A DNA stretch of 64,000 nucleotides from Planctomycetota bacterium (GTDB lineage: Bacteria; Planctomycetota; B15-G4). Of this stretch, positions 17,858 through 49,088 are shown in pieces. Below the pieces are notes generated by a model that worked only from the letters and a program-made list of their open reading frames with translations, was not told the DNA's origin and made no database searches. Both the position numbers and the translations under genes were made by a program. The stretch is taken from NCBI GenBank assembly GCA_029259715.1, contig JAJDEP010000014.1, positions 259,551-323,550 on the forward strand, read 5' to 3'. Numbering within the stretch: position 1 is the first letter of the stretch; each line of letters starts with the position of its first letter.

Positions 17858-19570
17858 TCAAGGTTGGATGATCAGCAGGCCGTCCGTCCCCGCCCAACCG
17901 AAGGGCGCGACCGGGTCCTGGATCCAAGACTGCAGGTAGATCTTCTCGCCGAGCGGCAGGCCCGCCGGCCAGGTAGCCGGGATCACGATCGAGCCGGCGG
18001 CATCGGTGACGAGCAACACGATGTTCGCGGGCGGGTTCGCATCGGGCACCAGCGTGCCGCCGTTGAGCGGCGTCAGCGCCGCCGCACGTGAACCGATCAG
18101 GAAGGCGATGGCGCTGGGCCGCGCGTCCGTCAGCGCGAGCGAGACAGGGTCACCGCCCTGCAGGTCTCCCGTCGCCGTCAGCACCGGAAGGCCGACCGTC
18201 CCGGCGACGCCGGCCGGGATGCGCTTGAAGCGCGCTCCGGCGAACCTGACCACATAGGCGTAGCCGTTGCCGTCCGCGTTGGCGCCCACGATGAAGTCGG
18301 CCTGGCAGTCCCCGTCGATGTCACCCAGGCAGGAGAGCCCGGAGCCGAAGTGGTCGCTGGCCGTCACGGCCGTGCCCAGTCCTGCCGCGAACCCCGGCAG
18401 CTTGGAGGCCCCGTTCAGTGTTCCGTCGGTCTTCAGGCGCAGCAGATACAGGGCCCCCCGGTTGGTCCCGCCGTCGTCGTCGAGGGCCGCGCTGACCAGC
18501 AACTCCGTGACGCCGTCGCCGTCCACGTCACCCATCGCCGCCAGTGACCCGCCGAAGTTGTCGAAGTTGTCGAGATTCCAGGTGAAGCCGCCCACGTTCT
18601 CCGTGATGCGGGTATGGGTGCGCACCGTGCCGTCGGCGTTGAGGAACAGGATCCACACACCGCCGACCGAACCGCCCGACGGCTCGTCCATCGAGATGCC
18701 GCCCACGGCCAGATCGACCACGCCGTCGCCGTCGAGATCCCCGATGTTCTCGACGGCGAAGCCGAACCGATCGCTCTGGGCGACGTCGGTCGTCGCCAGT
18801 CCCCCGGAGCCCGAGCCGATCTTCGAGCGGGCCTTCACCGTCCCGTCGGCGTTCAACAGCAGGATCCAGACCGCACCGGTGAAAGGCGCCCCGTCGAAGT
18901 CCGAGCTGGCGCCCACGGCGATGTCCATCACGCCGTCGCCATCGAGGTCGCCCAGCGGGCTGATGTCGGAGCCGAAGTTGTCGTTGCTCTTCAACGCCCC
19001 GCCCATGCCCGAGGCGTCGCTGATGCGGGCGTGGCCCTTCACGCTGCCGTCGGCGTTGAGGAACAGGATCCAGACGGCGCCGGCGTCGCTGCCGCCCTCG
19101 TCGTCGTTGTCGGCACCGACGGCCAGGTCGGGGATGCCGTCCCCGTCGAGGTCCCCGAGGTCGCCGAGACCGTGTCCGAACTTGTCTCCCTCGGCGAGGG
19201 CGCCCGTGAATCCGCCCAGGCCATCACCGATCTCGGTCGTGGCCTTTACGGTCCCGTCGGCGTTCAGGTGCAGGATCCACACGGAACCGGTCCCGTTGTT
19301 GCCGACGGCGTCGTTGTTGCGGAACTGGCCCACCGCGACGTCGACCACGCCGTCACCATCGAGGTCGCCGATCCTGGTGGCGGAGGTCCCGAACTGCTCG
19401 CCACTCAGGATCGTTCCCCCGAAGCCACCCTGGGAGTTTCCGATCTTCTGGTGGTCGAGCACGGTCCCAGGCACTTGAGCGGCCCCCGCCGGGGCGAGCC
19501 ACGCGACGGACGCAACCGCCGAAAGCGTGAGAGCGGCGAGACGAGCATGAGCGGGATGACGTGACGACAT
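17858..19570 (-). CDS. secreted FG-GAP repeat (integrin-alpha-like beta-propeller) protein
   Basis: Signal peptide. At least 7 repeats of GDLDGDGVxDxAVG / VWILxLNADGTV. GGAGG RBS upstream. Confidence 0.8.
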   Translation of the reverse strand: MSSRHPAHARLAALTLSAVASVAWLAPAGAAQVPGTVLDHQKIGNSQGGFGGTILSGEQFGTSATRIGDLDGDGVVDVAVGQFRNNDAVGNNGTGSVWILHLNADGTVKATTEIGDGLGGFTGALAEGDKFGHGLGDLGDLDGDGIPDLAVGADNDDEGGSDAGAVWILFLNADGSVKGHARISDASGMGGALKSNDNFGSDISPLGDLDGDGVMDIAVGASSDFDGAPFTGAVWILLLNADGTVKARSKIGSGSGGLATTDVAQSDRFGFAVENIGDLDGDGVVDLAVGGISMDEPSGGSVGGVWILFLNADGTVRTHTRITENVGGFTWNLDNFDNFGGSLAAMGDVDGDGVTELLVSAALDDDGGTNRGALYLLRLKTDGTLNGASKLPGFAAGLGTAVTASDHFGSGLSCLGDIDGDCQADFIVGANADGNGYAYVVRFAGARFKRIPAGVAGTVGLPVLTATGDLQGGDPVSLALTDARPSAIAFLIGSRAAALTPLNGGTLVPDANPPANIVLLVTDAAGSIVIPATWPAGLPLGEKIYLQSWIQDPVAPFGWAGTDGLLIIQP

Positions 19571-19851
19571 GGTGAGACTCCTCCGCCCCGGGAACTTGGA
19601 GCTGTAGGAGTAGGCGTGGGAACCCCGCCGCCTCCCCGGAGGAAACCACGATCCTCCCGGTCACGCAGGCGACGTACTTCGAATCGGGTCGCCCCGTCGG
19701 CGGGGCGCCCCGACGGCGTGTCGGCGTCGCCATCCCTCGATCGCAACTGCATTTGCCGGTAACAGCAGGTCCGGTGAGAATGAACGTCGGGCGGCCCGGT
19801 GACCGCTCCCTCGGGAGATCGCCACGCCCGCCTCCACCGCCGATGAGATCC

Positions 19852-20451
19852 ATGGACCACCCGCCCCACGACGCCCCGCCCCCGGACGACGGCACACCGG
19901 ACGCCGCGCCGGGCGACCGCCCCGACCCCACCCTCGGCGAACACCCCGAGGCGGGCCAACTGCTGCCCCTCGTGTACGACGAGCTGCGGGCCGTAGCGGC
20001 CGACCATCTGCGCCGGGAGCGCGTCGACCACACGCTGCAACCCACCGCGCTCGTGCACGAGGCCTACTTGCGTCTGGCACGGCTCGATCGCATCCAGTGG
20101 AAGGACAAGACCCACTTCTTCGTGGCCGGCGCGGGCGCCATCCGGCGGGTGCTCGTGGACCACGCCCGCGGCAAGGGCGCGGCCAAGCGCGGCGGCGGCG
20201 CCCGGCGCATCACCCTCGGCGCCGTCCCCGGCGTGGAGGCGAACCACGAGGTCGACCTGATCGCCCTCGACGAGGCCCTCGGCAAGCTGGCCGGGCTCGA
20301 CCAACGCAAGGCCCGCATCGTCGAGCTGCGCTACTTCGGCGGCCTGACCATCGCAGAGACCGCGCGGGCCCTCGGCGTGGGCACCACCACCGTCGAGGAC
20401 GACTGGGTCTTCGCCCGGAGCTGGCTGCGGCGCGAGCTGGGCGAACGATGA
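19852..20451 (+). CDS. ECF-type RNA polymerase sigma factor of the Ser/Thr-kinase-associated subgroup (TIGR02999/ECF43-like)
   Basis: Sigma region 2 (LLPLVYDELRAVAADHLRRE...ALVHEAYLRL) and region 4 HTH (RIVELRYFGGLTIAETARALGVGTTTVEDDW). Its stop overlaps the kinase ATG (ATGA). The start may instead be the ATG at 19843. Confidence 0.75.
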   Translation: MDHPPHDAPPPDDGTPDAAPGDRPDPTLGEHPEAGQLLPLVYDELRAVAADHLRRERVDHTLQPTALVHEAYLRLARLDRIQWKDKTHFFVAGAGAIRRVLVDHARGKGAAKRGGGARRITLGAVPGVEANHEVDLIALDEALGKLAGLDQRKARIVELRYFGGLTIAETARALGVGTTTVEDDWVFARSWLRRELGER

Positions 20452-22985
20452 GCGACCGCTTCGCGCGGATCGAGGCGCTGTTCCAGGAGGCGCGGCGGCT
20501 GCCGGCGGATCAACGCAGCGCGCTACTGGCCGGTTCCCCGGCCGACCTCCGCGAGGAGGTCGAGTCGCTGCTGCGCGAGCACGACCGCGACACCCAACCG
20601 TTCCTCGAGACCCCCGCCCTGGGCAAGGACTTCAAGGTGGCGCCGGTGCCCGCCGAGACCATGGTGGTGCCCGAGCGCATCGGTCCCTATCGCATCCTCG
20701 AGCGGATCGGCGAGGGCGGCATGGGCGCCGTGTACCTGGCCGAGCAGGACCAGCCGCGGCGGGTCGTCGCGCTCAAGATCATCCGACCGGGCTGGGCCAC
20801 GCCGGCCATGCGCCGACGCTTCCAGCACGAAGCCGAGGTCCTCGGTCGGTTGCGGCATCCGGGCATCGCACAGATCTACGACGCCGGGCTCGACGAGCAG
20901 GAACACGGCGACTTCCCCCACATCGCCATGGAGTACGTCGACGGGCGACCCTTGCACGAGTACATCGCCAAGGAGCACCCCGACCTCGCCGAGCGGCTCG
21001 ACCTGTTCGCCCAGGTCTGTGACGCCGTCGAACACGCCCACGCCAAGGGTGTGATCCACCGCGACCTCAAGCCGGGGAACATCCTCGTGGAGGATGTCGA
21101 CGGCAAGCCGCGCCCGCGGGTGCTCGACTTCGGCATCGCGCGCATCACCGACGCCGATGTGGCTCTCACCACCATGCGCACGAGCCTCGGTCAGCTCGTC
21201 GGCACGCTGCAATACATGAGTCCCGAGCAGGCCGCCGGTGACTCGACCCAGCTCGACCACCGCAGCGACGTCTACTCGCTGGGCGTGATCCTGTTCGAGA
21301 TGCTCACGGGGCGGCTGCCCTACGACCTCGGCAAGGGCATGGTCCATCAGGCGGTGAGCGTGATCCAACACGAGGAACCCACCGCGCTGGCCGCCATCGA
21401 CACGAGCCTGCGGGGCGACCTCGACACCATCGTGGGCAAGGCCCTGGAGAAGGACCGGCAGCGGCGCTACCCGTCGGCGGGCGCCCTGGCGGCCGACATC
21501 CGCCGCTTCCTCGCCCACGAGCCGATCCTGGCCCGGGCGCCCAGCACGCTCTACCAACTCGGCAAATTCGCGCGACGCAACCGCATCCTGGTGGCCGGCG
21601 TGTCGGCCGTGATCGTGGCCTTGTCCGTGGGCCTGGCCAGCACCCTCTGGCAATGGCGCGAGACCGAGGCCCAGCGCGCACTGGCCGAGGGTCGATTCGA
21701 GGACCTGGACGAGCTCGCACGCTTCTTCATCGCCGAGTTCGACTCGACGCTCATGCACGTGCCCGGCACGCTGGAGGCTCGGCGACTGATCGTCTCGCGC
21801 GGCCTCGACTACCTCGACCGGCTCGCGCAGGAATCGGAGCTCGACCCCGAACGGCAGCAGACGATCATCTCGGGCTACTCGCGCATCGGTGACATCCAGG
21901 GCGCCCCGCAGCAACCCAACATCGGCGACGTCGGCGGCGCCCTCGCCAGCTACCGCAAGGCCCTCGCCCTCAATCAAGGCCTGCTGAACGACGAGCGGGG
22001 GTGGCACACGCCCCACCTGTCTCAGGCCAGCCTGCTCGCGCGCATGGGCGACGTGTTCTCCTACCAGCAGGCCTACGAAAAGGCGCTCGAGCACTATCAG
22101 CAGGCCCTCGTGTATTGGAACGAGTACCACGACCGGGCGGCGACGTCTCCGCGTCCCCCCAATCCCTATCGCGATCGCATCGCCGAGCGGCTGCTGACCC
22201 TCGGACGGCAGGCCCAGGCCGACGACGAGTTCCGCATCGCCCACGAGGAGGCGGTGCACTGGGCCGCGCTGCACCCGGGGGAGTGGAAGATCGAGCGCCA
22301 TGTGCTCGTGGCACTGATGAAGGTCGCCATGCAGGAGGAGCGCGGTCAACGCCTCGAGGAGAGCCTCACGCACTACGCCGAGTACCTCGAACTCGGCCAC
22401 CGGTTGTTGGCGGACGAGCCCCACAACGCGATCCTGCTGCGCGACCTCGCCACCGGCTACAACCGCCGGCGCGACGTGCAGGTGGCGCTCGGGCGCACCG
22501 CCGAGGCCCTCCGCGACAACACCCAGGCGGAGCACTACTACTCCCAGCTCGTCGAGGCCGACCCCACCAGCGCGCAGGCCCTCATGGACTGGGCCCTGGC
22601 CGTCAACGCCGCCGGCGAGATGGCCCTCGCGGCCGGCGACCTGCCCGAGGCCCGCTCGAGGTTCGAGCAGTTCTGCGACATCTCGGCGCAGCTGGTCGCG
22701 CGCGACCCCGATCACTCGGGCTACCTACGCCGTCGCGGCGTGGCCCTGTTCAAGATGGGCGAGTACCACAAGGCGCGGGAGGAGTGGGCCCTCGCCCGGG
22801 ACTGGTTCCACCAGAGTTACAAGCACTTCCGCAACATGGAGTCCCGCGGCCTCATCTGGCAGAGCGACCTCGACGCCGGCGTCATCGAGGAGATCGCGGG
22901 AGAGATCACCGCGTGCATAGGCGCGGATCTGCAGCAGGCCGAGGCCGAGCTGAAGCAGGCGCCCCTCGCGCCCGAGGGGCCGTAG
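20448..22985 (+). CDS. Ser/Thr protein kinase with TM segment and C-terminal TPR-like repeats
   Basis: GEGGMGAVY, ALK, HRDLKPGNIL, DFGIA, SPEQ. TM ILVAGVSAVIVALSVGLAS. A C-terminal helical-repeat region. Start at the internal ATG (MSDRFARIEALFQEA). The upstream 117 codons of the ORF are Arg-rich junk. Confidence 0.85.
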   Translation: MSDRFARIEALFQEARRLPADQRSALLAGSPADLREEVESLLREHDRDTQPFLETPALGKDFKVAPVPAETMVVPERIGPYRILERIGEGGMGAVYLAEQDQPRRVVALKIIRPGWATPAMRRRFQHEAEVLGRLRHPGIAQIYDAGLDEQEHGDFPHIAMEYVDGRPLHEYIAKEHPDLAERLDLFAQVCDAVEHAHAKGVIHRDLKPGNILVEDVDGKPRPRVLDFGIARITDADVALTTMRTSLGQLVGTLQYMSPEQAAGDSTQLDHRSDVYSLGVILFEMLTGRLPYDLGKGMVHQAVSVIQHEEPTALAAIDTSLRGDLDTIVGKALEKDRQRRYPSAGALAADIRRFLAHEPILARAPSTLYQLGKFARRNRILVAGVSAVIVALSVGLASTLWQWRETEAQRALAEGRFEDLDELARFFIAEFDSTLMHVPGTLEARRLIVSRGLDYLDRLAQESELDPERQQTIISGYSRIGDIQGAPQQPNIGDVGGALASYRKALALNQGLLNDERGWHTPHLSQASLLARMGDVFSYQQAYEKALEHYQQALVYWNEYHDRAATSPRPPNPYRDRIAERLLTLGRQAQADDEFRIAHEEAVHWAALHPGEWKIERHVLVALMKVAMQEERGQRLEESLTHYAEYLELGHRLLADEPHNAILLRDLATGYNRRRDVQVALGRTAEALRDNTQAEHYYSQLVEADPTSAQALMDWALAVNAAGEMALAAGDLPEARSRFEQFCDISAQLVARDPDHSGYLRRRGVALFKMGEYHKAREEWALARDWFHQSYKHFRNMESRGLIWQSDLDAGVIEEIAGEITACIGADLQQAEAELKQAPLAPEGP

Positions 22986-24755: not shown

Positions 24756-25851
24756 TCACCGCTTGCGGCTCCTCAGGTAGGTCTCGATGAAGGGCTGGAT
24801 GCCGCCGTCGAGCACCGATTGGGTGTTGCCGATCTCGTGGTCGGTGCGGTGGTCCTTCACCATCTGGTAGGGGTGCAGGACGTAGCTGCGGATCTGGTGT
24901 CCGAAGCCGATGTCGCCCTTCACGCCCTGGATGTCGGCGAGCTCGGCGGCCCGCTCGGACTCGGCCCGGGTGGCGAGCTTGGCGCCGAGCATCTTCATGG
25001 CCGTGTTGCGGTTCTTGTGCTGGCTGCGCTCGCTCTGGCACGCCACCACGATGCCCGTGGGGATGTGCGTCAGGCGCACGGCGGAGTCGGTCTTGTTGAC
25101 GTGCTGGCCGCCCGCGCCCCCCGCGCGGAAGGTGTCGACGCGCAGGTCGTCGCTCTTGATCTCCGGCGCCTCGGCGTCGTCGAGCTCGGGCATGATCTCC
25201 ACCGCGGCGAAGCTCGTCTGGCGCCGGCTGGCCGCGTCGAAGGGCGAGATGCGCACCAGACGATGCACGCCGTTCTCGGCGCGCAGGTAGCCGTAGGCCC
25301 AGTCGCCCTTCACGAGCATGGTGGCCCACTTCACGCCGGCCTCGTCGCCCTCGAGCTTGTCCACCAGCTCGTACTCGTAGCCCTGCTCCTCGCACCAGCG
25401 CCCGTACATGCGCATGAGCATGGCGGCCCAGTCGCACGACTCCGTGCCGCCGGCGCCGGCCTGCACCGAGAGGTAGGCGTTGCGCACGTCGTACTGACCG
25501 TCGAGCATGACGCGGAACTCGAGCCGCTCCATGTCGGCGTTGACGGCCTCCGACATCTGCTCGGTCTCGGCCACGACGGCTTCGTCCTCGGTCGCCAGCT
25601 CGACCATCACTTCGAGGTCGTCGAGCTGGGCGTCCATCGCCAGCAACGGATCGAGGCTCGCCTTCACCCGCTTGAGTTCGCCGACGACGACCTGGGCCGA
25701 CTCCTGGTCATTCCAGAAACCGTCGGCGGCCATCTTGTCTTCGAGTTCGGTCCGGCGTCCGCTCAGGCGATCCGAGTCAAAGAGAGTCCTTGATCTGGTT
25801 GAGGCGACGGCGGATGTCGGTGGCGCGGGCCTTTACGTCGTCGAGGGCCAT
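24756..25851 (-). CDS. prfB: peptide chain release factor 2 with programmed +1 frameshift
   Basis: Frame-0 start [24 protein letters not shown], then CTT TGA C. Frame +1 continues [22 protein letters not shown]..., with the SPF motif and the GGQ motif ([16 protein letters not shown]). Confidence 0.9.
25776..25782 (-). promoter_or_regulatory. prfB: RF2 autoregulatory +1 frameshift heptamer CUU UGA C with upstream SD-like AGGA
   Basis: Minus-strand mRNA reads AAGGACUCUCUUUGACUC. The in-frame UGA is followed by a +1 reading frame encoding the rest of RF2. Confidence 0.85.
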
Positions 25852-26154
25852 GATTCGTTCCGGACTCTGGGGTGGCGAAAACGGCAGAGTCTAGCGAATC
25901 ACCGGGAGCCGATCAGCGGGCGGGCGCCGATCACTGGGCGGGCCCTGCCCCGGGGTCCGGATGGTCTCTGAGTGCGGTCGGGCCGAGAACTGAGGCTGGT
26001 GCATCCTGGTGTCGAATCAACGAGGGACGACCCGACCGCGTGTCAGGAGAGACGTGTGCCGGCCCCTCGAGCCGATCACAACCCACCCTTCGTCGACACC
26101 CGCCGGTGTCTTGAGCGCTCGGGATCACGCTGGGCGTGAGCGAGCCCGTTGGCT

Positions 26155-26240
26155 GGGCCCCGTCGAGGGGGCCCCGTCGAGGGGGCCCCGTCGAGGGGGT
26201 CCCGTCGAGGGGGTCCCGTCGAGGGGGTCCCGATGAGTCG
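26155..26240. repeat. 14-bp direct tandem repeat (GCCCCGTCGAGGGG x3, GTCCCGTCGAGGGG x2, plus a degenerate partial copy)
   Basis: Read directly in the sequence just 3' of the coaC stop. Each unit can fold as a CCCC-GUCGA-GGGG hairpin. 14 is not a multiple of 3, so it is non-coding. Confidence 0.85.
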
Positions 26241-26247: not shown

Positions 26248-26793
26248 TCAGTCGGCGGAAGCGTGGGCCGCCTCGATGGCCGCGATGATGTCCGCTTCAA
26301 GGGCGAGGGCGCCCTGACCCGTCTCGCCGCACGCCAGGGTCTTCTCCACCGGCTCAACGATGTGGAAGCGTTCCCACCCGGCGAGGGTGTCGAGGTTCGC
26401 GCGCACGGCGGGGTTCTCCCACATGGCGGTGTTCATGGCCGGCGCGAGCACCACCGGCACCGACGCACGGCTGGCCAGCACCACCGTGCTGAGCAGGTCG
26501 TCGGCCAGGCCATGGGCGAAACGGCCGAGCGTGTTGGCCGTGGCCGGCGCCACGGCGATGACGTCGGGCCAACGGGCGAGCTGGATGTGCTCGATGCTCG
26601 CGTCGGCCGTCTCCCAGAGGGAGGTGGCCACCGGGCGGCCCGAGAGCACCTCGAACGTCATCGGCGTCACGAAGCGCTGCGCTGCGTCGGTCATGACCAC
26701 CTGCACCTCGTGGCCGTGATCCGTCAAGCGACGCAGCACCTCGCAGGACTTGTAGGCCGCGATACCGCCGGTGATGCCGAGGAGCACCTTCAC
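26248..26793 (-). CDS. coaC: phosphopantothenoylcysteine decarboxylase (flavoprotein)
   Basis: GITGGIAAYK, PAMNTAMW. GTG start overlaps the coaB stop (GTGA). The ORF-track start at 26832 would overlap coaB by 43 nt. Confidence 0.8.
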   Translation of the reverse strand: MKVLLGITGGIAAYKSCEVLRRLTDHGHEVQVVMTDAAQRFVTPMTFEVLSGRPVATSLWETADASIEHIQLARWPDVIAVAPATANTLGRFAHGLADDLLSTVVLASRASVPVVLAPAMNTAMWENPAVRANLDTLAGWERFHIVEPVEKTLACGETGQGALALEADIIAAIEAAHASAD

Positions 26794-27434
26794 GAGGTGG
26801 TCAGCTCCGACTGCGAGCGCTCGCCGATCCATGTCATCAGCGCAGACGCGAGCGAGGCCTTGCCGCGGACACGGGCCTCGACGCCGCGGGGGCCCACCAG
26901 CACGGCCGCATGATCGTCGTCGCCGATGGCCGCGGCATCGTTCGCAACCACCAGGTCGAGGTGTGCCCGTTGCCGCAGCGACTCGGCGGCCTCGACGAGT
27001 CGGCCTTCATCGACATCCGAGAGCAGCTTGAATCCCACCAGCAACGCCTCGGGGGCCAGCGCGCGCAGCCCGTCGATGAGCTTGGGAGCCCGCCGCAGTC
27101 GGATCACCAGCTCCTCGGCATCGGAGCTCAGCTTGCCCGACGACCGTTCGGGGATGTAGTCGGACACCGCCGCCGCATGGATGACCACATCGGCCTCCGG
27201 CACCCACTGCCGCAGCAGGTCACACAGCTCCGCCGACGTGTCGAACCAGTGCGTCTCCACGGTCGCGTCGGGACGAGCCCTCGCTCCCCGCGCCATCAGC
27301 AAGACCACGTCGAATCCAGCCTGCACGGCGGCATCAGCCACGCGGGCGCCGAGGCGTCCGGTACTGGTGTTCGCCACGACCCGCACGTCATCGATGGGTT
27401 CGCGGGTGCCGCCCGCGGTCAAGACGATGCGCAT
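26790..27434 (-). CDS. coaB: phosphopantothenate--cysteine ligase
   Basis: LTAGGTREPIDDVRVVANTSTGRLG, AAAVSDY, FKL motifs of CoaB. Confidence 0.8.
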   Translation of the reverse strand: MRIVLTAGGTREPIDDVRVVANTSTGRLGARVADAAVQAGFDVVLLMARGARARPDATVETHWFDTSAELCDLLRQWVPEADVVIHAAAVSDYIPERSSGKLSSDAEELVIRLRRAPKLIDGLRALAPEALLVGFKLLSDVDEGRLVEAAESLRQRAHLDLVVANDAAAIGDDDHAAVLVGPRGVEARVRGKASLASALMTWIGERSQSELTTS

Positions 27435-27439
27435 GGGCG

Positions 27440-28168
27440 CTACTTGGCGTTCGCCCCGCCGTGGACCGGCGCATACACCGCACCCGACGAGAGCACCAGC
27501 AGGTCGTCCACCACGAAATCACCGAGGACTTCAGAGGGCGGCAAGACCAGGTCGACCGATCCGACGGACAGTTCGACCCAGCCGATCACGATGCTCGAGA
27601 GCGACGCAGAGGTCCCGTCGTCGCCGTTGATGGAGACCGACGCGGACGTCGGGCCGATGATGGGATCGTTGAGCACCACGGCGATGTCGTAGCCGACCTT
27701 CGGGACGTACGGCATGACGATGTTGCCCGCCACCACGATGTCACCGCTGGGCGTGAACTCGACGTCGATGAGCGGCGTGTCGCCCTCGTCGGAGACGCGC
27801 ATGTAGAAGTGACCCACGGACCGTCGCGGCTCGATGAAGATCGAAGCCGAGATGCGCGTGCTCTGGGCTTCAGTGGTGTCGACCAGGCCCCGCAGCACGG
27901 CGAGGGAGCCCGTGTTGGTGGCGATGAGCCGTCCGCCTCCCTGGGGATCGACCTCGACGACGAACGCGTCGTTGGCCGACAGGTCGTCGAATTCGCCGAC
28001 CTGGGCCATGGGCGTAGCCCCGAGCGTTCCGCCGTCGCCGTCGGCGTCGAAGTTGGCCAGGAACAGCACGGTCGGACGCAACATCAGTCCCGTCACCGGA
28101 ATCGTGGCGGCCAGCAACAGCGCGCACAGCACCGGGAACCCGCGTCGTGAACGGATGGTTCGGGACAT
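27440..28168 (-). CDS. hypothetical secreted protein (possible Tat signal SRRGFPVL)
   Basis: High-GC3 ORF. N-terminal MSRTIRSRRGFPVLCALLLAATIPVTG. No recognisable domain. Ends 5 nt before coaB. Confidence 0.5.
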   Translation of the reverse strand: MSRTIRSRRGFPVLCALLLAATIPVTGLMLRPTVLFLANFDADGDGGTLGATPMAQVGEFDDLSANDAFVVEVDPQGGGRLIATNTGSLAVLRGLVDTTEAQSTRISASIFIEPRRSVGHFYMRVSDEGDTPLIDVEFTPSGDIVVAGNIVMPYVPKVGYDIAVVLNDPIIGPTSASVSINGDDGTSASLSSIVIGWVELSVGSVDLVLPPSEVLGDFVVDDLLVLSSGAVYAPVHGGANAK

Positions 28169-28300
28169 CGAAGTCTTCACGGAGAGAGAGCAGCTGTCGG
28201 GAGCGTTCGTCCGTACGAATCGGGACGCACCCTGCCCACCATGGAGCGGCCCAAGTATACACCCTGCGTCCAGAGCCCGGGGCCAGCGGAACTGCTCAGG

Positions 28301-31300
28301 TCACGATAAACCCAGCCTGGCCAGCATCTTGTAGAAGGTACGGGTTCCCACCCCCAGGCTGCGGGCAGCGGCCGCCTTGTTGCCCTGCGAGCCCTCCAGG
28401 GCCCTCAGGACCTGTTCACGCTCGAAAGCGAGAAGCCGGTCCTTGATGGATCCGTCCCCGCCCTGGGGGCTCTCGTCGCCACCGGGATCGGATCCGGGGG
28501 TTCCGCCACCGACCACCCCGGACCCGCCTCCCGCCGCTCCCCGGTCGATGGGGCCGGCCGGGCTGAGCACACGGGTCACCAACTCGAGCGAGAACGACGA
28601 GCTCTCCCGATCGAACATGAGCAGGTTGCTCACCAGGTTCTGGAGCTCGCGCACGTTGCCCGGCCAGGTGTGGCGCTCGAGCGCCCGCAGGGCTTCGGGG
28701 TCGAGCGTGCGCGGCTCGCCGTCGTGATCGGCGACGAAGTGCTCGATGAGCAACGGGACGTCCTCGACACGATCGCGCAACGGCGGCAGGTGCACCTCGG
28801 CCACGGCGAGCCGATAGAACAGGTCCTCGCGGAAGGTGCCCTCGGGGATCATCTTGCGCAGGTCGCGGTTGGTGGCGCTGAGCACACGCACGTCAACCTG
28901 CCGCTCCTCGCGACCGCCGACGGGCAGGAAGGTGCCCTCCTGCAGGACGCGCAGGAGTCGCTTCTGCACGTCGAGGCTCATGTCCCCCACCTCGTCGAGG
29001 AACAGCGTGCCGCCGTCGGCCTGCTCGAACAGGCCGCGGTGATCGCGGTCGGCGCCCGTGAACGCCCCCCGCACATGCCCGAACAGCTCGCTCTCGATCA
29101 GGTGCTCGGGGATGGCCGCGCAGTTGAGTGAGACGAAATTGGCCAGCTTGCGGGGGCCGTTGAAGTGGATCGCCCGGGCGATGAGCTCCTTGCCCGTGCC
29201 GCTCTCGCCCTGGATCACCACGGGGTACTCGGTGTCGATGATGCGATCCATCAGGTCGAGCACGTCGTGCATCTTCGGGCTGCGCGTGACGATCTGGCTG
29301 TAGTCGTACTTGAGGCTCAGGGCCCGGCGACTCGCGTCGAGGGACTCACGCACCTCCACCAGCTCGGCCTCGCGCTGGTCGAGCCGCGATTGCAGCGCAT
29401 CGTTGAGACGCGCGACCTCGTCCTGGCTCGCCCGCAGCTCGTCGTTGGTGGTGCGCAGGCCTTCCTGCAGGCGCGCGTTCTCGAGCGCGATGGTCGCCTG
29501 CTCGGCCAGGCCGGTGGCCAACTCGAGGTGGCCCTCGTCGAAGCGGGACACCACCTGGGGGTGGTCGAGGTAGATCGACCCGATACCGCGCTCCTTGATG
29601 ATCAGCGGCACGCACAGGATCGAGAGCAGCTTGAGCTCGGAGATGCTGCGGGCGGACGCCAGGCGCGGGTCGTCGATGGCGTTGTCGGTCAGGATGGGCT
29701 GCTTGCTCTGCATGACCTGACGCGAGACCGAGTGGCTGATCTCGAACTCGGGGTTGTCGATGTCGCTCTCGTCGATGTTGCGCGCCACGCGGAATTCCTG
29801 GGCGGACCCCTGGAACAGGATCAGGAAGCCCCGGGCCGCGCCCGTCATCTCGATGGCCGCGTCGACGATCAGGTCGAGCAGCTGCTGGGTGTCGTGCACG
29901 CTGTTGAGCGCCTTGGTGATCTCGGCCAGGCGTTCGAGGTTGCGGACACGTTCGGCGAATCGGGACAGAGCGGTCATGTCTTCTCCCTGGTGCTCCATCT
30001 TCGCTTGTCCAACGGCCAGCGCATCGAGTTTCTCCGACAGCGGGACCAGGTCGAGCAGCTTCACCAACAGCCGCGCGCGGTCGCCGTCCCGCTGCAGGCG
30101 CACGAGCAACCCGCCCACGACGCCGTAGTCGAGGTGGGGCTCCTGCATGGCCGCTTCCAGGCGCGCCAGGTCGACGGTGCCCCGGTCGACGAGCCCCGCC
30201 GCCTCCACGGGGCCGTCCGGGGACTCGCCCAGGATCGTGTGGGCCAGCTCGAAGTCGGCATCCGCCTCCGCCGCCCGGGCCTGCCGTTCACGCCCGACCG
30301 CCCGGGTGAACAGCAGCGCCGCCAGGTGGGGCCCGCGTTCCTCGACGGTCGCATCCACGTCCTCGAGATCGTCGGCGCCACACCGTCCCAGCAGCGCCCG
30401 TGCCACGAGCTGCTCCTCCCGATGGCCGACGGAGCGGGCCTGCTCGAGGGCCGCCTGCGCCGAGGCTCGAGCCGCCTCGCGGTCCCCCTCGTAGAGCTCG
30501 ATGCGCGCCAGCTGCAGGCGCGACTTGATCTCATACTCGGGCACCGTGACCCGGGTGAGCAGCTCGCGCGCGCGCTCGATGTCCGCGCGCGCCTCGGCCG
30601 GTCGCCCCCGGAGCAGGCGCCAGTGGCCGCGCGTCGTGAGGACGATGGCCTGGCCCCGGTCGTCACCGCGCGCGGCGCGGATGGTGAGGCTGCGCTCGAA
30701 GGCCTCTTCCGCCTCGTCGAGACGGCCTTCCGACGCCAGTGCCCGGCCGGTGTTGTTGTGCACCACGGCCTGCAACCACTCGTCGCCGATCCGCTCGGCC
30801 AGGGCCAGCGAGCGCTGGAACTGCCGGCGCGCCGTGTCGACGCGTCCCAACTCGAGCCAGCCGATGCCCAGGCCGTTGAGCGCGTGCGCCAGGCCGAGGG
30901 AATTGCCCGCCATCTCCATGCGTCGGGCGGCCTCTTCCTGGATGGCCAGGCCCCGCCGCCGCTCACCGCGCACGCGCACGATGCGTCCGAGGTTGCTCAT
31001 CATCGGGCCGATGAGCACGTCCTGGCCGAGCTCCTTGGCCATGGAGATGGACGACTCGAGCTGAACCATGGCCTCGTCGTGGTGTCCCAGCTTCTCCTCG
31101 ATCAAGCCCACCCGCGCGCGGATCATCATGGTGCGGCGATGCGGGCGCGCGCCCTGCCGGCGCATGGCTTCGCGCATGTCGCGCAGGGCTTCCTCGGAGC
31201 GGCCCAGGATGTCGAGGGCATCCGCGCGCGTCTCGAGCAACAGGGCGGCGTCCGCGTCCGCCAGGGGATCGGCGTCGACGTCGATGAGCAGGTCGATGGC

Positions 31301-33370
31301 GTCGTTGGCGCGCCCGCGCAGGATCTGGATGCGGGCTTCGCGCTGGGTCAGGCCCACGTCACCGGGGAGTCGGCGGCGGGCCTCTTCGACCGTCGACAAG
31401 GCGGCGTCGTAGTCGGCCGCCCGGATGGTCACGTCGATCAGGTCGAGCCATACCGCCCGCGCTCCGACGTCCTCCAGCGCCACACCCTTCACGCCGCGAC
31501 GCAACAGGCCCATGGCCCGCTCGAGGCGCCCCACCCGCCGGAGCTGCTCGGCCGCCCGCCGGATCAAGGCGCGCGTGGCGACGCCGTCGCCGTCCTCGGG
31601 CGGGTGATCGCCGAGGACGTCCGCGACAGCGACCGCCGCCGCCGCATCGAGGGGTTCGATGTCGAAGCGTTGCGCCAGGGCCACGCGATGGGCCGCGGAC
31701 ACGTCCACCCCCGCGCGGAGCTGACGACGCAGGCGCTCGTCGGCCGGCGAATAGAGGTCCTCGGGCTGCGACCGCTCCCGCCGCAGGATGCCCCGGGCCA
31801 CCAGGGCGGCGAGTGCCGCACCGACGTCCCGCCCGAGGACCTCGGCGCACGCCCCCGCGGAGAGCGGGCGCGGACACAGGGCCAGCACGCTCAGTAGTTC
31901 CTTGTCGAGGCCCGTGAGCAATTCGTCGAGGTCACCCTCGGAGGCCACGGGCCACTCGGCGGCGAGTCGGCCCTCGTGCACGCCCACGCCCTGCGCACCG
32001 CGCACGACGACGCCGCGCATGGGCAGCGCGCCGAGGGCGCCCACCAGCTCGCCGTGCTCGCGCAGCGGTGTCGCTTCGAGGCGCTCTTCGAGCACGGGCT
32101 GACGACCGATCCACTCGCGCAGCACCTCGATGTCCTCCCCGGGCGCCAGGCCGGCGCCGGCGCGCAGCCTCAGCCCGCGCACGTCCGCGAGCTGCCGCGC
32201 GACCGCGTCTCGAGACCGCGCCGCCCGCTCGTCGGGCGCCGCCGCGCGCCCGATGGAAACCACCAACGGCCGACACTCGGCCAGGGCCTCGATCAATCCG
32301 GCGAGATCGGCGGCACTCGCCCGGCCCGTGCGCACTTCGGCCGCGGCGAGACGCGCGGACAGGCGCGCCGGCGCCGCGTCGACCGTGGCCGCGAGGGCAA
32401 CCAGCTGCGACATGGCCTGACCCAGCGATGTCTCCGGCGCCGCAAACGGTGCGAGCCAGACCGCGCCGCCGGCCACGGCGTCCAGCCGGGCCGAGCGCTG
32501 AGAATCGTGACGGGCCAGCGCTGCCGAGAGTTTGCCGACCAGGGCGGCCTGCTCCTCGCCTTCGACCAGCGCCGGCGCCGCACCCGGCAGCGACGCGATG
32601 GCCTCAAAGCCATCGGCCGGACGCACGGCCGGATCCGGATGGAGCAGGCGCTCGAGCAGCGCGATCAGGTCCGCGTCCCCCACCCGCGCGGCCGCCTCGG
32701 ACGGCAGTCCGGCGAAGGCCTCGCGCTCGGCCGCCATCCCCGCCGGATCGCTGGCCGAGAAGAGCAGGTGCCCGGTGAGCCCCTCGGCCAGGACGAGCCC
32801 CACCGCCCACAGGTCACTGGACGTCGACGGCGCCTGCCCCCGCAGCAACTCGGGCGCCATGTTCCGGGGGGTGCCGGCGAGGGGACGCGCAGCGGCCTCC
32901 TCCCGCGGACACGACAGACCCAGGTCGAGGATCACGGGACGGCCGGTGGCCCTTTCGAGGCGCACGTTGTCGGGCTTCAGGTCGCGATGCAGCAACCCCA
33001 GTTCGTGCAGGAAGCCCACGGCCGAGAGCAGCTGCACCGCCAGGGTGACGCCGTCGCGGCGCGCCGCGCCGCCCCCCCCCTCACCCGCCGTGCCCGGCCC
33101 GAAGGCCACGCCTTCCACGTACTCGGTGACGGTGTAGATCCTGCCCGAGCCGGGGAGGCGATTGGCATCCAGGCAGGCCACCAGACCGGGGTGGCGCACC
33201 CCCAGCAGCGCCATCTCCGCCGCTGCCTGATCCTCGCTCTCGGGGCCGTGCAGCTTGAGCGCCACCTGCCGCCCGCCTGCGTCTCCGGCGCGCCAGACCT
33301 CGGCGCCGTCGGCGCGCGACAGGCATTCCTCGAGGCGATATCCGGCGACGCGGGGAGCGTTCATGACCAC
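28301..33370 (-). CDS. multidomain regulator: N-terminal Ser/Thr kinase, helical/TPR-like region, GAF, sigma-54-interaction AAA+ domain, Fis-type HTH (NtrC-family enhancer-binding protein fused to an STK)
   Basis: Kinase: [22 protein letters not shown]: [40 protein letters not shown]: [32 protein letters not shown]: [23 protein letters not shown]. Confidence 0.85.
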
Positions 33371-33478
33371 CTCAGGGGACCCACAACCCCCTCAACGATA
33401 CGCCGCGAAGCAGGGCGAGGCATGCGGCGAGCGGGATCCTCGTGGCGGACTCGGGGCGACAGGCTCACGCAGCGAGGC

Positions 33479-35014
33479 TCATCGAGGCGGCGTCGGCGGG
33501 GGATTCGGCGGCAGGCCCGGGGGCGCATTGGGCACGGGCTTCGGGCCGCCCCCCGAGGTGTCCATGGCGTTCACCAGGCGGCGCAAGCGCGCCATGGGCG
33601 GCACCTGCCCGGCGAGGGGCGCGGTCAGGTCGACGCGCGAGGCGGCATCCACTCCCTTCTTCAGGATGTAGAGGGCGCACGAACGCAGCGGCATGGGCAG
33701 CGACTCGTCCTCCAGCATGGCGAGTGCCTTCGAGGCCAATGGACCGTCGAGCAGTTCGAGGTAGCCCTCGACCAGGGCCGGGTGCACCGGCTGGCGCGTG
33801 ATGTTGCGCACGAACCACTCGCGCTGCCGGCGCTCCACCTTCTTCTCGATGATGCGCACCTTGGGGTCGACACCCGTCTGGCCCAGCAGCCGAGCGATGT
33901 CGTCGCGCCACTGGGTCCCGAACGAGGCGTCAGTGATGCGTTGCCGCAGGTCGGTGCCGCCCTCACCGAGGTCGGCCACCAGGCCCCGGCCGGTCTTGGC
34001 GATGCGCTCCATGGACTTGCGCGTCTCGACCATGCGATCCGAGCCGCCGAGACCGTCGGCGGTGCCGGTGTAGAGCACGTTGACGAGCGAATTGTCGTCC
34101 CGCGCGAAGCGGCGGATGGTCGACAGCAGCGGCGAGACCCTGTCTTCGTGGGGCGGCGCATCGCCCACCAGGATGATCACGCGCCGCGCCTCAGCGCGCC
34201 ACGCGAGCTGTTCCGCCGCCACGGTGACGCCGACGTCCACGGCCTCGGGGAAGTCGCCGCCCCCGACCGCGTCGAGGTCGAGCAGGAAATTCTGGATCTG
34301 GTAGCGGTCATCCGACAGGTCGACGTGCCGGGAGATCCACGCGTCGTCGGCGTCGCGGTAGGCGACGAGCCCGAGGCGCAGGCTCGGCACCACCGTCGCC
34401 AGGTCCACGATGATGTCGTCGATGGTGGCGCGCGCCGCGGCGATGAAGGGCCCCATGCTGGCCGTCGCGTCCACCACGAAGACGACGTCGAGGCCCCGAC
34501 CGCGCAGATCGATCACGAATTGCTGGAAAGGGGAGGCACCGCCGCCGAGACCGAGATCGGAGGTCTCCGAAGGAGCCGCCACGAGGCCGCCGCCCGTCCC
34601 GCCCCCGCCTCCGCCGAAGCCGCCCCCCACGCCGAGCACGTCGAGCCCCGGCGGTTCGTCCAGGTCCGATTCCTCGGACGCCACCGGGTCGGGCAGGACT
34701 TCCTCGGGATCCTGGGGCGTGTCGTCCAGGTCGTCATCCGAGGGCGGCGTCCATTCCTCGGTCTCGAGCACCGTCGAGCGGATCTCCAGGGGCTTGATCA
34801 GGCCACCGTCGGGCTCCCCAGGGAGCAGCGAGAGCAGGACGAAGGCGACGACGTGCAGCAGCGCCGCCACCACGAAACTGGGCACCGCTCGCCCTATCTG
34901 TACGCGCCGCTCGACCTGCTGGCGTTGCTCCCGACCGGTGGTGGCCACCGCGGGCAGTGAGCGGCCGCGGCCACCCCACCGGCGCTTTCCATCCTTCGGG
35001 CTCTCAGCGGACAT
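33479..35014 (-). CDS. membrane-anchored von Willebrand factor A (vWA) domain protein with acidic/Gly-rich linker
   Basis: TM VPSFVVAALLHVVAFVLLSLL. MIDAS DATASM. VIILVGDAPPHE. Start set at ATG 35014 (MSAESPK), because the ORF-track GTG at 35089 would lie 20 nt from the divergent rsmD start. Confidence 0.65.
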   Translation of the reverse strand: MSAESPKDGKRRWGGRGRSLPAVATTGREQRQQVERRVQIGRAVPSFVVAALLHVVAFVLLSLLPGEPDGGLIKPLEIRSTVLETEEWTPPSDDDLDDTPQDPEEVLPDPVASEESDLDEPPGLDVLGVGGGFGGGGGGTGGGLVAAPSETSDLGLGGGASPFQQFVIDLRGRGLDVVFVVDATASMGPFIAAARATIDDIIVDLATVVPSLRLGLVAYRDADDAWISRHVDLSDDRYQIQNFLLDLDAVGGGDFPEAVDVGVTVAAEQLAWRAEARRVIILVGDAPPHEDRVSPLLSTIRRFARDDNSLVNVLYTGTADGLGGSDRMVETRKSMERIAKTGRGLVADLGEGGTDLRQRITDASFGTQWRDDIARLLGQTGVDPKVRIIEKKVERRQREWFVRNITRQPVHPALVEGYLELLDGPLASKALAMLEDESLPMPLRSCALYILKKGVDAASRVDLTAPLAGQVPPMARLRRLVNAMDTSGGGPKPVPNAPPGLPPNPPPTPPR

Positions 35015-45072: not shown

Positions 45073-45741
45073 ATGGACTCGACCCCTGCAATGCCCGCCG
45101 CCCTTGCTGCCGCCTGCAGCCAAGGCCATCCCCTCGAACTCTGGGTCCTCGTGGACGGCGAGATCGTCCAATGCCCGGGGTTGTTCCTGCAACCGGATGA
45201 GCAGGGTCGCCCCCAGCTCACGGCGGCGCTGCCCGACGACTTCGTCGGCGTGATCCGCAACGGCTCGGCCGTGCGCGGCTTCTTCGCCGACCATGCCGGG
45301 ACGATCCACACCTTCCTCACCAGCGTGCATCGCTGGGTGCCGTTCGACGACAACCCCCGCTCGGCGCGCATCCACCTCGACGCGCCGGTCATCGTCGCGC
45401 CCTGCCAGCGTCGCCGCAGTCGCCGCAAGGGCGCCGGCAACCTGCCCGTGCAGCTCTCGGTCACGATCCGCGGGAACCGCGAGTCGGTCCAGGGTCGACT
45501 CGTCGACGCCTCGACCAACGGCATCGGCGTGCGCCTCGTGCGCACGGCCAGCAACTGGTTCGGCAAGGGCACGCGCGTCAACGTCGAGGTCGACATGCCC
45601 GACCGCGCCGAGCCCCTGTCCTTCGACGCCATCGTCAGCCGCGCCAACACCGAGGCGTTGCATTACCTCTACGGACTGCGCGCCGCGGATGCCCGCGAGA
45701 GCCGCAAGGTCCTGCGCGACATCCTCGACCAGGTGATCTAG
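45073..45741 (+). CDS. PilZ domain-containing protein (c-di-GMP receptor-like)
   Basis: RRRSRRK (RxxxR) followed by DASTNGIGVRL (DxSxxG). Confidence 0.65.
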   Translation: MDSTPAMPAALAAACSQGHPLELWVLVDGEIVQCPGLFLQPDEQGRPQLTAALPDDFVGVIRNGSAVRGFFADHAGTIHTFLTSVHRWVPFDDNPRSARIHLDAPVIVAPCQRRRSRRKGAGNLPVQLSVTIRGNRESVQGRLVDASTNGIGVRLVRTASNWFGKGTRVNVEVDMPDRAEPLSFDAIVSRANTEALHYLYGLRAADARESRKVLRDILDQVI

Positions 45742-45800: not shown

Positions 45801-48800
45801 TCAGTATCCGGGCGGCGGCGGGGCCGGTTCGCACTTCTCCGGCGACAGGTCGACGAAGCCGACGAGCAGGTTCGACAGGCCGATGCGGATGATGCCCGCG
45901 TCCTCTTCCTCGGTGTAGAGCTGCATGAAGATGACTTCGTCACCCGTCAACCCGGACGGATCGGGGTTCACCCGGAACGGCAGGCTGAATTGCGGCGCCG
46001 GCGTGGGGAAGATGATCAGGAAGTGGAGGCCCGTCACGTCCGGCCCGAAGCTGCCGCCCCGTAGTTCGAGCGGCGGGTCGAATTCCTCCAGGCTGATGAA
46101 CAGACCGGCCGCCGTGGTCTCGGGGGCGAAGCGATCGGCCAGGACGAGCACGTCGCAGCCCGGGCTCAGCTCGCCGGACATGCGCAGCCGCGGCGGCAGC
46201 GGGCCGAAGCCGGTGCCGGCGTAGCTCAAGCTCTCGTCGTAGTCGTCGCGCTGCTCGAAGTCGCTCTCTGCGTAGGTGAAGCCGTCGACCAGCGTGTCGG
46301 TGCCGGTGGAGTCGGTCACGCGCAGGTCCATCAGCGTCTCGACGGGACCCTTCAGGTTGCTCGGCAAGGTGAACGTGAACACGTTCTCGTCGAGGGAGGC
46401 GGGCACGACCTCGAAACCCTGCTCGTCGTTGCCGAACTCGAAGACCAGGTCCACGGGCGGGATGATCGAGCTGTCGATGGTCACCTCGACGTCGATGGCC
46501 TCTTCGCCCATGAACGGCGGCGGTCCCGTCTGGTCCTCGTCGAAGATGCCCGATTCGGCGGGTCCCGTCGCCGGCTCGACGCCGGTCACCATGATCGTCT
46601 TGTAGGTGAAGGCGTTCTCGAGCACGTCACTGCCGTTGCTGTTGCGCACTTCGATGTCGACGAGCTCGTTCAGCTGCGGGCCCTTCTCCAGCAACACCGT
46701 GATGGTGGCCGTGAGCACGTCCGGGTCGCCGTCGCCGCCCTCTTCAGGATCGTCGAACACGACGGATTGCACCGTCATGGGCACGCCGTCGATGAACACC
46801 TCGGTGTCGCGCACGCCGAATTCCTCGACGTCGTTGAAGGCGATGCCCCGCACCGCAATGGTCTGGCCGGGCAGCCCCCGGTCCGGCTCGGGCGGTTCGG
46901 TGATCTCCGTCTCGACGAACTGGATGAAGTTGTCGAAGGTCTGGGTGCCGAGCGGCGTGGTGAGTGTGAGGTCGCTGAGCGGACCGAAGGGCGGCGCGCC
47001 CGGCGGTGGCGGCACCCGAAAGGTGATCGAGCCCGTGCTCCCGGACATCGAATCGACGATCTCGACCGTCAGGCCGTCGACCTCGACGGTGAACGGCTCG
47101 ACGAGATTGAAGACCTCCATCTCGACATCGGGGCCGCCGAAGAACACGTCGGTGGGCGCGACGTTGCCGAGACGGAAGATGGGTCCGTAGACCGCGTGGG
47201 CCCTCCCCGTCTCCCGCCAGGCCACCGACCCGAAGGGCTCGGCACTCGGGCGCGAAGCGGCACCGGGCGCGCCGGTCGCGAGGTCGGGGTCGCCGTCGTT
47301 GTTGAGATCGCCGGCGGCGACGGTCGTGCCGGCATGAAAACCCGCGGCCTCTCCCGAGAACTGGAGCTGGAACACGCCCGGCGGCGGGAAGTCGAGGTTG
47401 ACCGTCGAGCCGTGCAGCCCGGACAGCACACCGCCGTCGAGCACGCGCAGGCGGCCGGCCTCCGGGAAGGTCACGAAGTTGATGTCGAGGTGGGCCGAAG
47501 ACGGCGTCCCCAGCAGCAGCTCGTCGATGCCGTCGGAGTTCCAGTCTCCCCCGGGCACCGCGAACACGCCGAGGACGCCCTCGCCCGTGGCCTGCCCGAG
47601 GATCTCGAGGGACAGGGGGCGCGCCGGCGTACCGGCCAGCGAGAGGTCGTAGCCCGCGGGCGCCGCGCTGTCGAAGGCCCCCGAGATGACATACGTGGCG
47701 CCCCGTTGGGGACGACCCAGGTCGCCGTTGAGCGGGGCGGTGATGATCAGGTCGTCGTAGATGTCGGCGCCGCCGCCCTCCTCGAAGAAGTCACCGGCCG
47801 GGCCGACGAAATGGCCGGCGCGATCGCCCTGGGCGCCCCCCGTGAACACGGGCCCCGCGTCGTCGGGGCCGTCGCCGAAGTCGTCCAAGGTGAGCAACGC
47901 TGCCGGCGTCGCGGGCAACTCGACACCCCGCAGCACCGCCACCGCCCCCGACAGCAGCTTGCCGTTCAACGAAGCCGAGGGTGCACCGATGGCGAACTCG
48001 TCGCCGATCAACGACGTGGCGCCCGCCTGTCCCGGCAGCACCGGGTCGAAGCGGCCGATCCCGGCGACCGAGGTGCCCAGCAGCTGGAAGTTGTCCGAGC
48101 CGCGCACCTCCGTAAGCCCCCCGGGCAGCGCGCCATTCAGGATCCGGGTGGAGACATTGGCCATGCTGTTGAAGCCGTAGGCGATCCAGGCGCTGCCGTT
48201 CTGGAGCAGGCCATCGGACGAGTCGAACGGCGCGCCGAGGATGATGTCGTCGCTGCCGTCACCGTCGGCGTCGATCCCGCCGCCCAGGGCGCTGCCCACC
48301 ATGGCCATGGAGCGATTGCCCCGCAGGAATGTGCCCGCGGTCGTGGCGCGCAGGTTCTCGAGGAACTGCTGGTGCGAGCCGTTGCCGATGGTCGCGCCGC
48401 CGAGCACCAGATAGGCGCCGCCGTTGAGGTTGAGTCCGCCCTCACTGCGCAGCGGCGCCCCGATGACGAAGTCAGGGAAGGCGTCGTTGTTGATGAAACC
48501 GACGGCGGCCACGGCCGTCCCGGTGTGGGAGCCGGGCGGGCCGATGAAGTCGATGCCCTCGCCGGGACCCAGGTTGCGCAGGTCGATCTCGGCATCGCTC
48601 CCGGGCGTGCCCTTCTCGGCGCTGCCGAAGATCAGGTAGGCGTGGCCCGCCTCGTCCGGCGCCGGGAAGGGGTTCGTCACCAGGGCCGGGTCGAGCGGAT
48701 CGGTGGGCATCAGCGGCGCGCCGATGAGCAAGTCGTCGTAGCCGTCCTGGTTGGCGTCGAGAATGGCGACGCTGCGACCGACAGCGCTGGTCACGGGCTG

Positions 48801-48968: not shown

Positions 48969-49088
48969 CTGCAAATCAAAGGGCTGCGTGCGGTTTGAGG
49001 GCCCGGATCGTACTGCCCTGCCGGGAGAGCGTCTAGCAGCGGTCGGGGGACCGGGGTAACCCAGCGACCAGGGGCCCGTCGGGGGGCT

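Follow-up and report, generated by a model that had tools for sequence, protein, structure and literature searches.

We analysed a 64-kb stretch of a Planctomycetota contig (JAJDEP010000014.1, positions 259,551 to 323,550; hereafter the window, in whose numbering all coordinates are given) that encodes, on its minus strand, a large protein joining a Ser/Thr kinase to a sigma-54 activator, here called the kinase-activator. The protein is composed of a Hanks-type kinase, a STAND nucleotide-binding oligomerisation domain (NOD) without its P-loop, a TPR sensor and a NifA-like GAF-AAA+-HTH module, in that order. Its gene lies between those of a vWA/MIDAS membrane protein, upstream, and of an exported 246-aa protein, downstream. 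The gene and its domains are as follows.

28301..33364, minus strand: kinase-activator gene, 1687 aa from ATG, or 1689 aa from a GTG at 33370
32585..33346, minus strand: Hanks-type Ser/Thr kinase domain, aa 9-262 (Pfam Pkinase, profile comparison against PDB, motif alignment)
31451..32608, minus strand: degenerate STAND NOD (nucleotide-binding, helical and winged-helix domains, NBD-HD-WHD), aa 255-640
30071..31450, minus strand: TPR solenoid, about aa 641-1100, at the position of a STAND sensor domain
29477..29896, minus strand: GAF domain, aa 1159-1298 (Pfam GAF_2/GAF/GAF_3)
29294-29476, minus strand: predicted helical linker of ~60 aa after the GAF domain, helicity judged from the sequence
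28604..29293, minus strand: sigma-54 interaction AAA+ domain and lid, aa 1360-1589 (Pfam Sigma54_activat and AAA_lid_14)
28319..28426, minus strand: Fis-type HTH_8 DNA-binding domain, aa 1649-1684 (Pfam E 2.1e-6, 27.8 bits against a cut-off of 22)

The ATG at 33364 is preceded by GAGG and is the likely start of the gene; residue numbers refer to the 1689-aa frame. The 1687-aa product corresponds to NCBI protein P0001 (100% identity), encoded on a 334-kb contig. The window has a G+C content of ~70%, and G+C at third codon positions (GC3) reaches 0.90 in the kinase-activator open reading frame (ORF) and 0.89 in that of the vWA protein, values that support both as real genes. Pfam models for Pkinase, TPR, GAF, Sigma54_activat, AAA_lid_14 and HTH_8 match the large protein; with the profile and motif evidence, they bear out the initial annotation of the window, in which one polypeptide combined a Hanks kinase, a GAF domain, an AAA+ domain with GAFTGA and a Fis-type HTH. 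The absence of a REC receiver domain, claimed there as well, also holds: no Response_reg/REC model matches the kinase-activator at E ≤ 0.01, and NtrC models align with it only from profile position ~127 on. The kinase-activator is not an NtrC-type response regulator. Hydropathy analysis revealed no hydrophobic segment, so the protein should be cytoplasmic. A defence-system reading was set aside, PADLOC having returned just generic kinase and RtcR/PspF domain matches.

Within the C-terminal module, GAF_2 covers aa 1159-1297 (E 6.5e-17), Sigma54_activat aa 1360-1526 (E 3.6e-69, 232 bits against a cut-off of 20.2) and AAA_lid_14 aa 1532-1589. The AAA+ domain possesses a Walker A motif (GESGTGKE, 29186-29209), a Walker B motif (LFLDEVG, 28985-29005), a FREDLFYRL motif and a GAFTGA loop (aa 1435-1440, window 29051-29068) that is nearly invariant among 30 homologues. 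NCBIfam models of NtrC, NifA and NorR match at E ~1e-92 to 1e-99, all under their equivalog cut-offs; the alignment with the NifA model extends from aa 1144 to 1678, spanning profile positions 3-519 of 534 (E 2.8e-98). Identity as NifA itself (TIGR01817; 330 bits against an equivalog cut-off of 528.85) or as NorR (310 bits against 476) was rejected. Sigma54_activat, Walker A/B, GAFTGA and the Fis-type HTH together place the module, as far as sequence can tell, among the bacterial enhancer-binding proteins.

At the N-terminus, Pfam Pkinase matches aa 37-252 (E 1.5e-25, 90.5 bits against a cut-off of 31.7), and a profile of six orthologues compared with the PDB matches StkP/PknB at E ~1e-35. In the Pfam domain search that the initial annotation had proposed, the kinase and sigma-54 AAA+ regions both score above their cut-offs. 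K38 (VALK), the αC Glu, HRDLKPDN (128-135), DLG (149-151) and GTPRNMAPE (166-174) are present in the window kinase, whose glycine-rich loop has degenerated to LSRADGAEV (aa 17-25). Alignment shows the GxGxxG consensus to be absent from all nine close orthologues and retained in paralogues; the window protein also carries DLG where its orthologues carry DFG. No orthologue, a distant syntenic one included, departs from the catalytic Lys, αC Glu, HRDLKPDN, D(F/L)G, activation-loop Thr or APE, at an identity of only 25-51% in the kinase region. The catalytic residues are those of a Hanks-type kinase, the glycine-rich loop is not, and phosphotransfer is a prediction.

The middle of the protein had been described as a long helical repeat region, which is correct for the TPR solenoid, where Pfam TPR_12 and other TPR models match around aa 828-938. 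The rest of the region is instead a degenerate STAND NOD, recognised by motif alignment and by the structural matches of AlphaFold2 models. The model of aa 255-1145 has a predicted local distance difference test score (pLDDT) of 89, and that of aa 255-640 a pLDDT of 87. Structure comparison matches the aa 255-1145 model to TPR proteins, MalT domain III among them, and the best structural matches of the NOD fold are MalT and the TPR-sensor STAND protein PH0952. In these models the region has the STAND architecture, composed of a NOD fold and then a repeat sensor.

The NOD of the window protein is degenerate at both the Walker A position (aa 308-318) and the Walker B position (aa 369-375, LVVSIGR). 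At the same positions, paralogues have GR-x-EL followed by GxxGSG(K/R)(S/T), and several of them hhhhDD; many carry Pfam AAA_16, which has no match in the window protein. The Walker A/B loss is confined to the window's orthogroup, several paralogues keeping both the P-loop and Walker B. Lacking the Walker A/B motifs, the NOD is predicted to be incapable of the ADP/ATP switch by which STAND activation is defined. In P0014, P0016, P0022-P0024, P0026, P0029, P0031 and P0034, an Arg replaces the Walker A Lys (GSGR[ST]). The motif alignment suggests that weakened or lost nucleotide hydrolysis by the NOD is widespread across the kinase-STAND-enhancer-binding-protein paralogues, beyond the window's orthogroup. 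Of evolutionary interest is the joint decay, within that orthogroup, of the STAND ATP switch and the kinase glycine-rich loop around a conserved catalytic core.

The architecture had been put forward as possibly undescribed, which is not supported: Pkinase (PF00069) and Sigma54_activat (PF00158) occur together in at least 55 clusters among the 120 homologue clusters listed. The source labels of these clusters are Sorangium sp. So ce321, Polyangiales, Labilithrix, Myxococcales, Myxococcaceae, Planctomycetota and Thermoanaerobaculia, and all of the clusters are generically named, for example 'sigma 54-interacting transcriptional regulator'. The kinase-AAA_16-(TPR)-GAF chassis occurs also with histidine-kinase or PP2C-type outputs. 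Among 1.84 billion proteins, the window's orthogroup comprises ~6 full-length representatives at 50% identity and three truncated or fragmentary ones, matched end to end, with sources labelled Planctomycetota; beyond it, scores fall from 634 to about 180 bits. Loci L006-L085 hold unrelated kinases recovered through generic kinase motifs and were left out of the comparisons. Our literature search found no publication describing or testing a kinase/sigma-54-activator fusion. In their 2008 PNAS survey of the myxobacterial kinome, Perez and colleagues reportedly listed, for Sorangium, sigma-54 activator domains as partners of eukaryotic-like kinases, and Schneiker's 2007 account of the Sorangium genome is said to mention such fusions. 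The architecture is an uncharacterised, though already catalogued, type of REC-less sigma-54 activator, of which the window protein represents a small orthogroup whose STAND switch has decayed.

The usual triggers of sigma-54 activators are small ligands or two-component phosphorylation. By analogy with known regulators, we give about even odds (a probability of roughly 0.5) that the kinase-activator is a cytoplasmic REC-less enhancer-binding protein in which a NifA-like GAF-AAA+-HTH output is mounted on a PknK/MalT-type kinase-NOD-TPR chassis and is regulated as follows. The GAF domain, together with the TPR/NOD scaffold before it, would keep the AAA+ domain inactive and non-hexameric, the role that GAF plays in NifA/NorR. 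Release would come from a ligand of the GAF domain, from a protein or peptide bound to the TPR sensor, or from both. The N-terminal kinase, whose activation-loop Thr is conserved (GTPRxMAPE), would tune the switch through auto- or trans-phosphorylation, which would take over the part that a phosphorylated Asp plays in NtrC-type regulators. The NOD would serve as a nucleotide-independent scaffold and not as an ATP switch. At the locus, loss of an intervening gene would have brought the vWA gene beside the activator gene. A kinase and STAND sensor hard-wired to sigma-54 in this way would give kinase-rich bacteria (source labels Myxococcota, Planctomycetota and Acidobacteriota) a separate way into enhancer-dependent transcription.

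The promoters on which such an activator would act were sought upstream of nearby operons, as the initial annotation had suggested, and none was found locally. The exact consensus TGGCAC-N5-TTGCW does not occur in the window; with at most two mismatches it occurs 45 times against 57 expected, which is no enrichment. Weighted scanning, applied to the window and to six orthologous loci, gave no positionally conserved or intergenic sigma-54 site near genes, and its matches near window genes fall within coding sequence. The rpoN gene is not in the window. Within the proposed mechanism, the target promoters are probably located elsewhere in the genome. The best sigma-54-like site of the window, TGGCAAGTCGATTGCA at 177-191 on the minus strand, has one mismatch; it precedes the first GC3-filtered ORF (773-2185) and is directed off the window edge.

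Four points weigh against the proposed mechanism. Neither a sigma-54 promoter nor a target gene nor rpoN was identified, and even sigma-54 dependence in this organism is unproven. Every mechanistic step is inferred, from the NifA/NorR and MalT/PknK precedents, only the domain anatomy and the motif states being observed, and the literature yielded no tested member of the architecture. The degenerate glycine-rich loop may leave the kinase inactive. The tight spacing or overlap of the vWA and activator genes in four genomes is compatible with co-transcription and with some functional tie in that clade.

As a tentative extension, hexamerisation of the activator in this small, lineage-specific orthogroup may be gated directly when the fused kinase autophosphorylates on Ser/Thr, rather than through an Asp phosphorylated in a REC domain, the nucleotide-free NOD acting as a rigid lever from the TPR sensor to the GAF-AAA+ unit. 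If true, and once demonstrated, this arrangement would give sigma-54 transcription its first experimentally defined link, within one polypeptide, to Hanks-type phospho-signalling. A less strongly held addition is that, in the clade lacking the intervening gene, the vWA protein might have been recruited as a co-transcribed membrane input acting through its short cytoplasmic tail.

The alternative that survives best, doubtful as we consider it, is that the kinase domain is a pseudokinase scaffold, which would perform no phosphotransfer and would serve for docking or allostery like the P-loop-less NOD, regulation passing wholly through the GAF ligand and the TPR partner. This agrees with a glycine-rich loop missing from all nine close orthologues and kept in paralogues, with the parallel loss of nucleotide-binding motifs from the adjacent NOD and with DLG replacing DFG in the window protein. 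However, invariance of K38, the αC Glu, HRDLKPDN, D(F/L)G, the activation-loop Thr and APE at 25-51% identity would be unexpected for a dead catalytic centre.

The same conserved catalytic residues would suit a bifunctional protein with two independent outputs, which we judge unlikely. Here the kinase would act in trans, as does M. tuberculosis PknK, the C-terminal module would separately activate sigma-54 promoters, and the fusion would merely co-localise or co-express the two activities under one STAND/TPR sensor. The fusion of one chassis to many different outputs is compatible with this arrangement, as are the PknK-type STAND kinases, which act on separate substrates. Against it, the neighbourhood has no conserved candidate for a substrate gene (FHA or similar), and the sequence offers nothing that separates trans from cis phosphorylation.

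The remaining alternative concerns the gene upstream, whose features and spacer are listed here.

33479..35014, minus strand: vWA/MIDAS membrane protein, 511 aa from ATG 35014 or 536 aa from GTG 35089
34820-34885, minus strand: its single transmembrane (TM) helix
~33977-34489, minus strand: its vWA domain, the protein having also a conserved helical C-terminal region
33365..33478, minus strand: spacer from the vWA stop to the activator start, 114 bp from ATG or 108 bp from GTG

Pfam VWA_4, VWA_2 and VWA match aa 201-371 of this protein (E 8e-10); it contains a DxTxS MIDAS motif, and alignment shows DATxSM, GGGDFxEA and VGDAPxH conserved in its orthologues. With one hydrophobic segment, it is the membrane-anchored vWA/MIDAS protein that the initial annotation had placed upstream on the same strand across a 108-bp gap, the distance from the GTG start. 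The N-terminal side of the TM helix contains 11 K/R against 4 D/E, and the next 60 aa contain 2 against 21. A basic N-terminal and an acidic C-terminal flank indicate, by the positive-inside rule, an N-in/C-out topology that puts the vWA domain outside the cytoplasm; the domain is therefore predicted to be periplasmic. The 114-bp spacer contains no terminator- or promoter-like site that we could find, and the equivalent spacer measures 94 nt in L001 and 40 nt in L003 and is replaced by an 11-nt overlap in L002. Comparison of related loci revealed four arrangements around the kinase-activator.

Window, L001, L002 and L003 (the window protein itself, P0002, P0004 and P0009; 48-56% identity): vWA gene directly adjoining the kinase-activator gene, in the order rluB-like, PMI, rsmD-like (divergent) / vWA, kinase-activator, ~240-aa uncharacterised gene, coaB, coaC, prfB, purH
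L004, L087 and L170 (P0005, a metagenome contig and P0003, the last at 54% identity): vWA gene, opposite-strand ~500-aa Pfam-less gene, kinase-activator gene
L088 and L169 (partial contigs): L004-like junction apparent, cut by contig ends
L005 (P0010): downstream block of uncharacterised gene, coaB, coaC and purH kept, two copies of the ~500-aa gene, no vWA gene

Because L001-L003 are syntenic with the window over the whole region, the adjacency there carries little information. The ~500-aa protein (L004:1412-2920 and L005:6428-7933, both on the minus strand, also in L087, L088, L169 and L170; 30-48% identity) has no Pfam match and is encoded divergently, directly upstream of the kinase-activator. 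As an immediate neighbour of the kinase-activator, its gene is more widely conserved than the vWA gene. We considered whether it might be a flipped vWA homologue and found it to be an unrelated gene. It is absent from the entire window and from L001-L003, and the direct vWA adjacency is therefore most simply derived, by loss of this gene.

Outside these loci the pairing is not kept. None of the three paralogues P0013, P0020 and P0031 has a vWA neighbour, and a vWA-centred metagenome scan found a kinase-activator in one (L087) of 80 vWA-homologue loci; the divergent rsmD-like gene (Pfam Cons_hypoth95) stands beside vWA in six of the 80. The vWA homologue of L086 (51% identity) precedes a convergent 765-aa gene; that of L090 precedes an unrelated ORF. 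No PADLOC family matches the vWA protein at E ≤ 0.01, in a PADLOC version whose coverage of TerY-P was not confirmed. No PP2C or FHA gene occurs among the GC3-filtered ORFs of the window or in related loci, which upholds the earlier remark that no phosphatase was visible.

By gene order the vWA gene appears to be a syntenic neighbour and not an obligate partner, and a functional linkage is not supported. The initial annotation had itself named missing conservation of the vWA gene beside homologues as grounds for refutation, and outside one narrow clade that conservation fails. Very improbable, in our assessment, is a two-gene transmembrane module of TerY-P-like kind but lacking the phosphatase, with the vWA protein as the sensor that governs the kinase-activator: the shared strand, the tight spacing in the window and L001-L003, the gap without a terminator and a vWA gene still within about 1.7 kb in L004, L087 and L170 speak for it, but the opposite-strand ~500-aa gene makes a shared transcript impossible in those three loci (L088 and L169 look alike), L005 keeps its downstream synteny without vWA, paralogues and 79 of 80 vWA-homologue loci lack the partner, an rsmD-like gene accompanies vWA more often than the kinase-activator does, and a vWA domain predicted to be periplasmic faces a cytoplasmic activator without a TM helix. 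The analogy drawn earlier with TerY-P triads falls with it, there being neither a PP2C gene nor a PADLOC match and the vWA domain being predicted extracytoplasmic. We do not recommend the vWA pairing for further consideration as a candidate for a new signalling module.

On the other side of the kinase-activator, a further gene keeps its place.

27440..28180, minus strand: exported 246-aa protein, encoded next to the kinase-activator on its downstream side; signal-like hydrophobic segment at the N-terminus

This protein has no Pfam or PADLOC match. Its homologues occupy the same position in seven aligned loci (the window and six others, L005 included) at 22-34% identity, and the protein evolves fast. 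In L169 and L170, a Pfam-less gene of similar size stands at this position, a correspondence of size and position only. Among the same-strand neighbours of the kinase-activator, the gene of the 246-aa protein is conserved most consistently; coaB, coaC, prfB and purH come next. Intergenic alignment revealed a conserved TATACT/TATAAT-like box upstream of it and no conserved sigma-54 motif there. A scan of 26.0-36.2 kb for consensus sigma-70 promoters and terminators detected no promoter; its one weak hairpin falls within the kinase-activator gene, at the 3' end, so operon boundaries cannot be drawn from the scan.

Further along the minus strand, coaB (DFP domain, 26790-27434) and coaC (Flavoprotein, 26248-26832) are separate genes in the order B then C; this order is conserved in all related loci examined, the usual form being a fused CoaBC with the C domain first. 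The coaC-prfB spacer contains a 14-bp tandem repeat, GGGCCCCGTCGAGG (26155-26232, 5.6 copies, 98% matches), and an 18-bp repeat of 2.3 copies lies at 25903-25943. The prfB gene (release factor 2, RF2) has a programmed +1 frameshift, with an ORF0 running from an ATG at ~25851 on the minus strand to CTT TGA C at ~25777-25783, upstream of the ORF at 24756-25733; the mechanical ORF (325 aa) therefore lacks the N-terminus of the PCRF domain.

Elsewhere in the window, a planctomycete-type extracytoplasmic function (ECF) sigma factor (PF07638, E 2.9e-51; 19753-20451, plus strand) is immediately followed or overlapped by a 962-aa Pkinase-TPR protein (20097-22985, plus strand), and this pair may be a second, unrelated link from a Ser/Thr kinase to transcription. 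A third Hanks kinase (666 aa; 3117-5117, minus strand), a CHASE-HATPase-REC hybrid histidine kinase (13834-16236, minus strand), a PilZ protein (45073-45741, plus strand) and glnE (57021-60113, plus strand) are also present, as are large FG-GAP proteins at 17858-19570, 45801-50045 and 52531-54621. The genome is signalling-rich.

Among known systems, TerY-P, composed of the vWA protein TerY, a PP2C phosphatase and a Ser/Thr kinase, resembles the locus in that a vWA/MIDAS gene adjoins a Ser/Thr kinase gene. It differs in that the window locus has no phosphatase gene, the vWA protein is membrane-anchored with a predicted external domain, and the adjacency is not conserved.

NifA, NorR and FhlA share with the window protein the GAF domain, the AAA+ domain with GAFTGA, the Fis-type HTH and the lack of REC; the C-terminal ~545 aa of the window protein align end to end with the NifA model. 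In NorR, repression of the AAA+ domain by GAF is described as established in PMC2941729. Unlike these regulators, the window protein adds about 1140 N-terminal residues (kinase, STAND NOD and TPR), and its neighbourhood contains no nif, nor or hyc genes. Database proteins with the order Pkinase-AAA_16-TPR-GAF-Sigma54_activat-HTH_8 (P0020 from Sorangium sp. So ce321, P0012, P0013, P0018 and P0019) measure 1500-1800 aa and share 39-47% identity with the window protein over the GAF-AAA+-HTH third. Many such paralogues keep a GxGxxG-like kinase loop and several a STAND P-loop (K/R in Walker A) and Walker B, whereas the window orthogroup keeps neither.

For the N-terminal chassis the counterpart is M. 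tuberculosis PknK, in which a Hanks kinase, a STAND NOD and a helical-repeat sensor follow one another in the same order. The STAND family includes both MalT and the kinase PknK (PMC4381067), and the MalT-clade STAND proteins are described also in PMC6468293. The window protein differs from PknK and MalT in having lost Walker A/B and in its output: MalT has a LuxR HTH and PknK has no DNA-binding domain, whereas the window protein carries an AAA+ sigma-54 activator.

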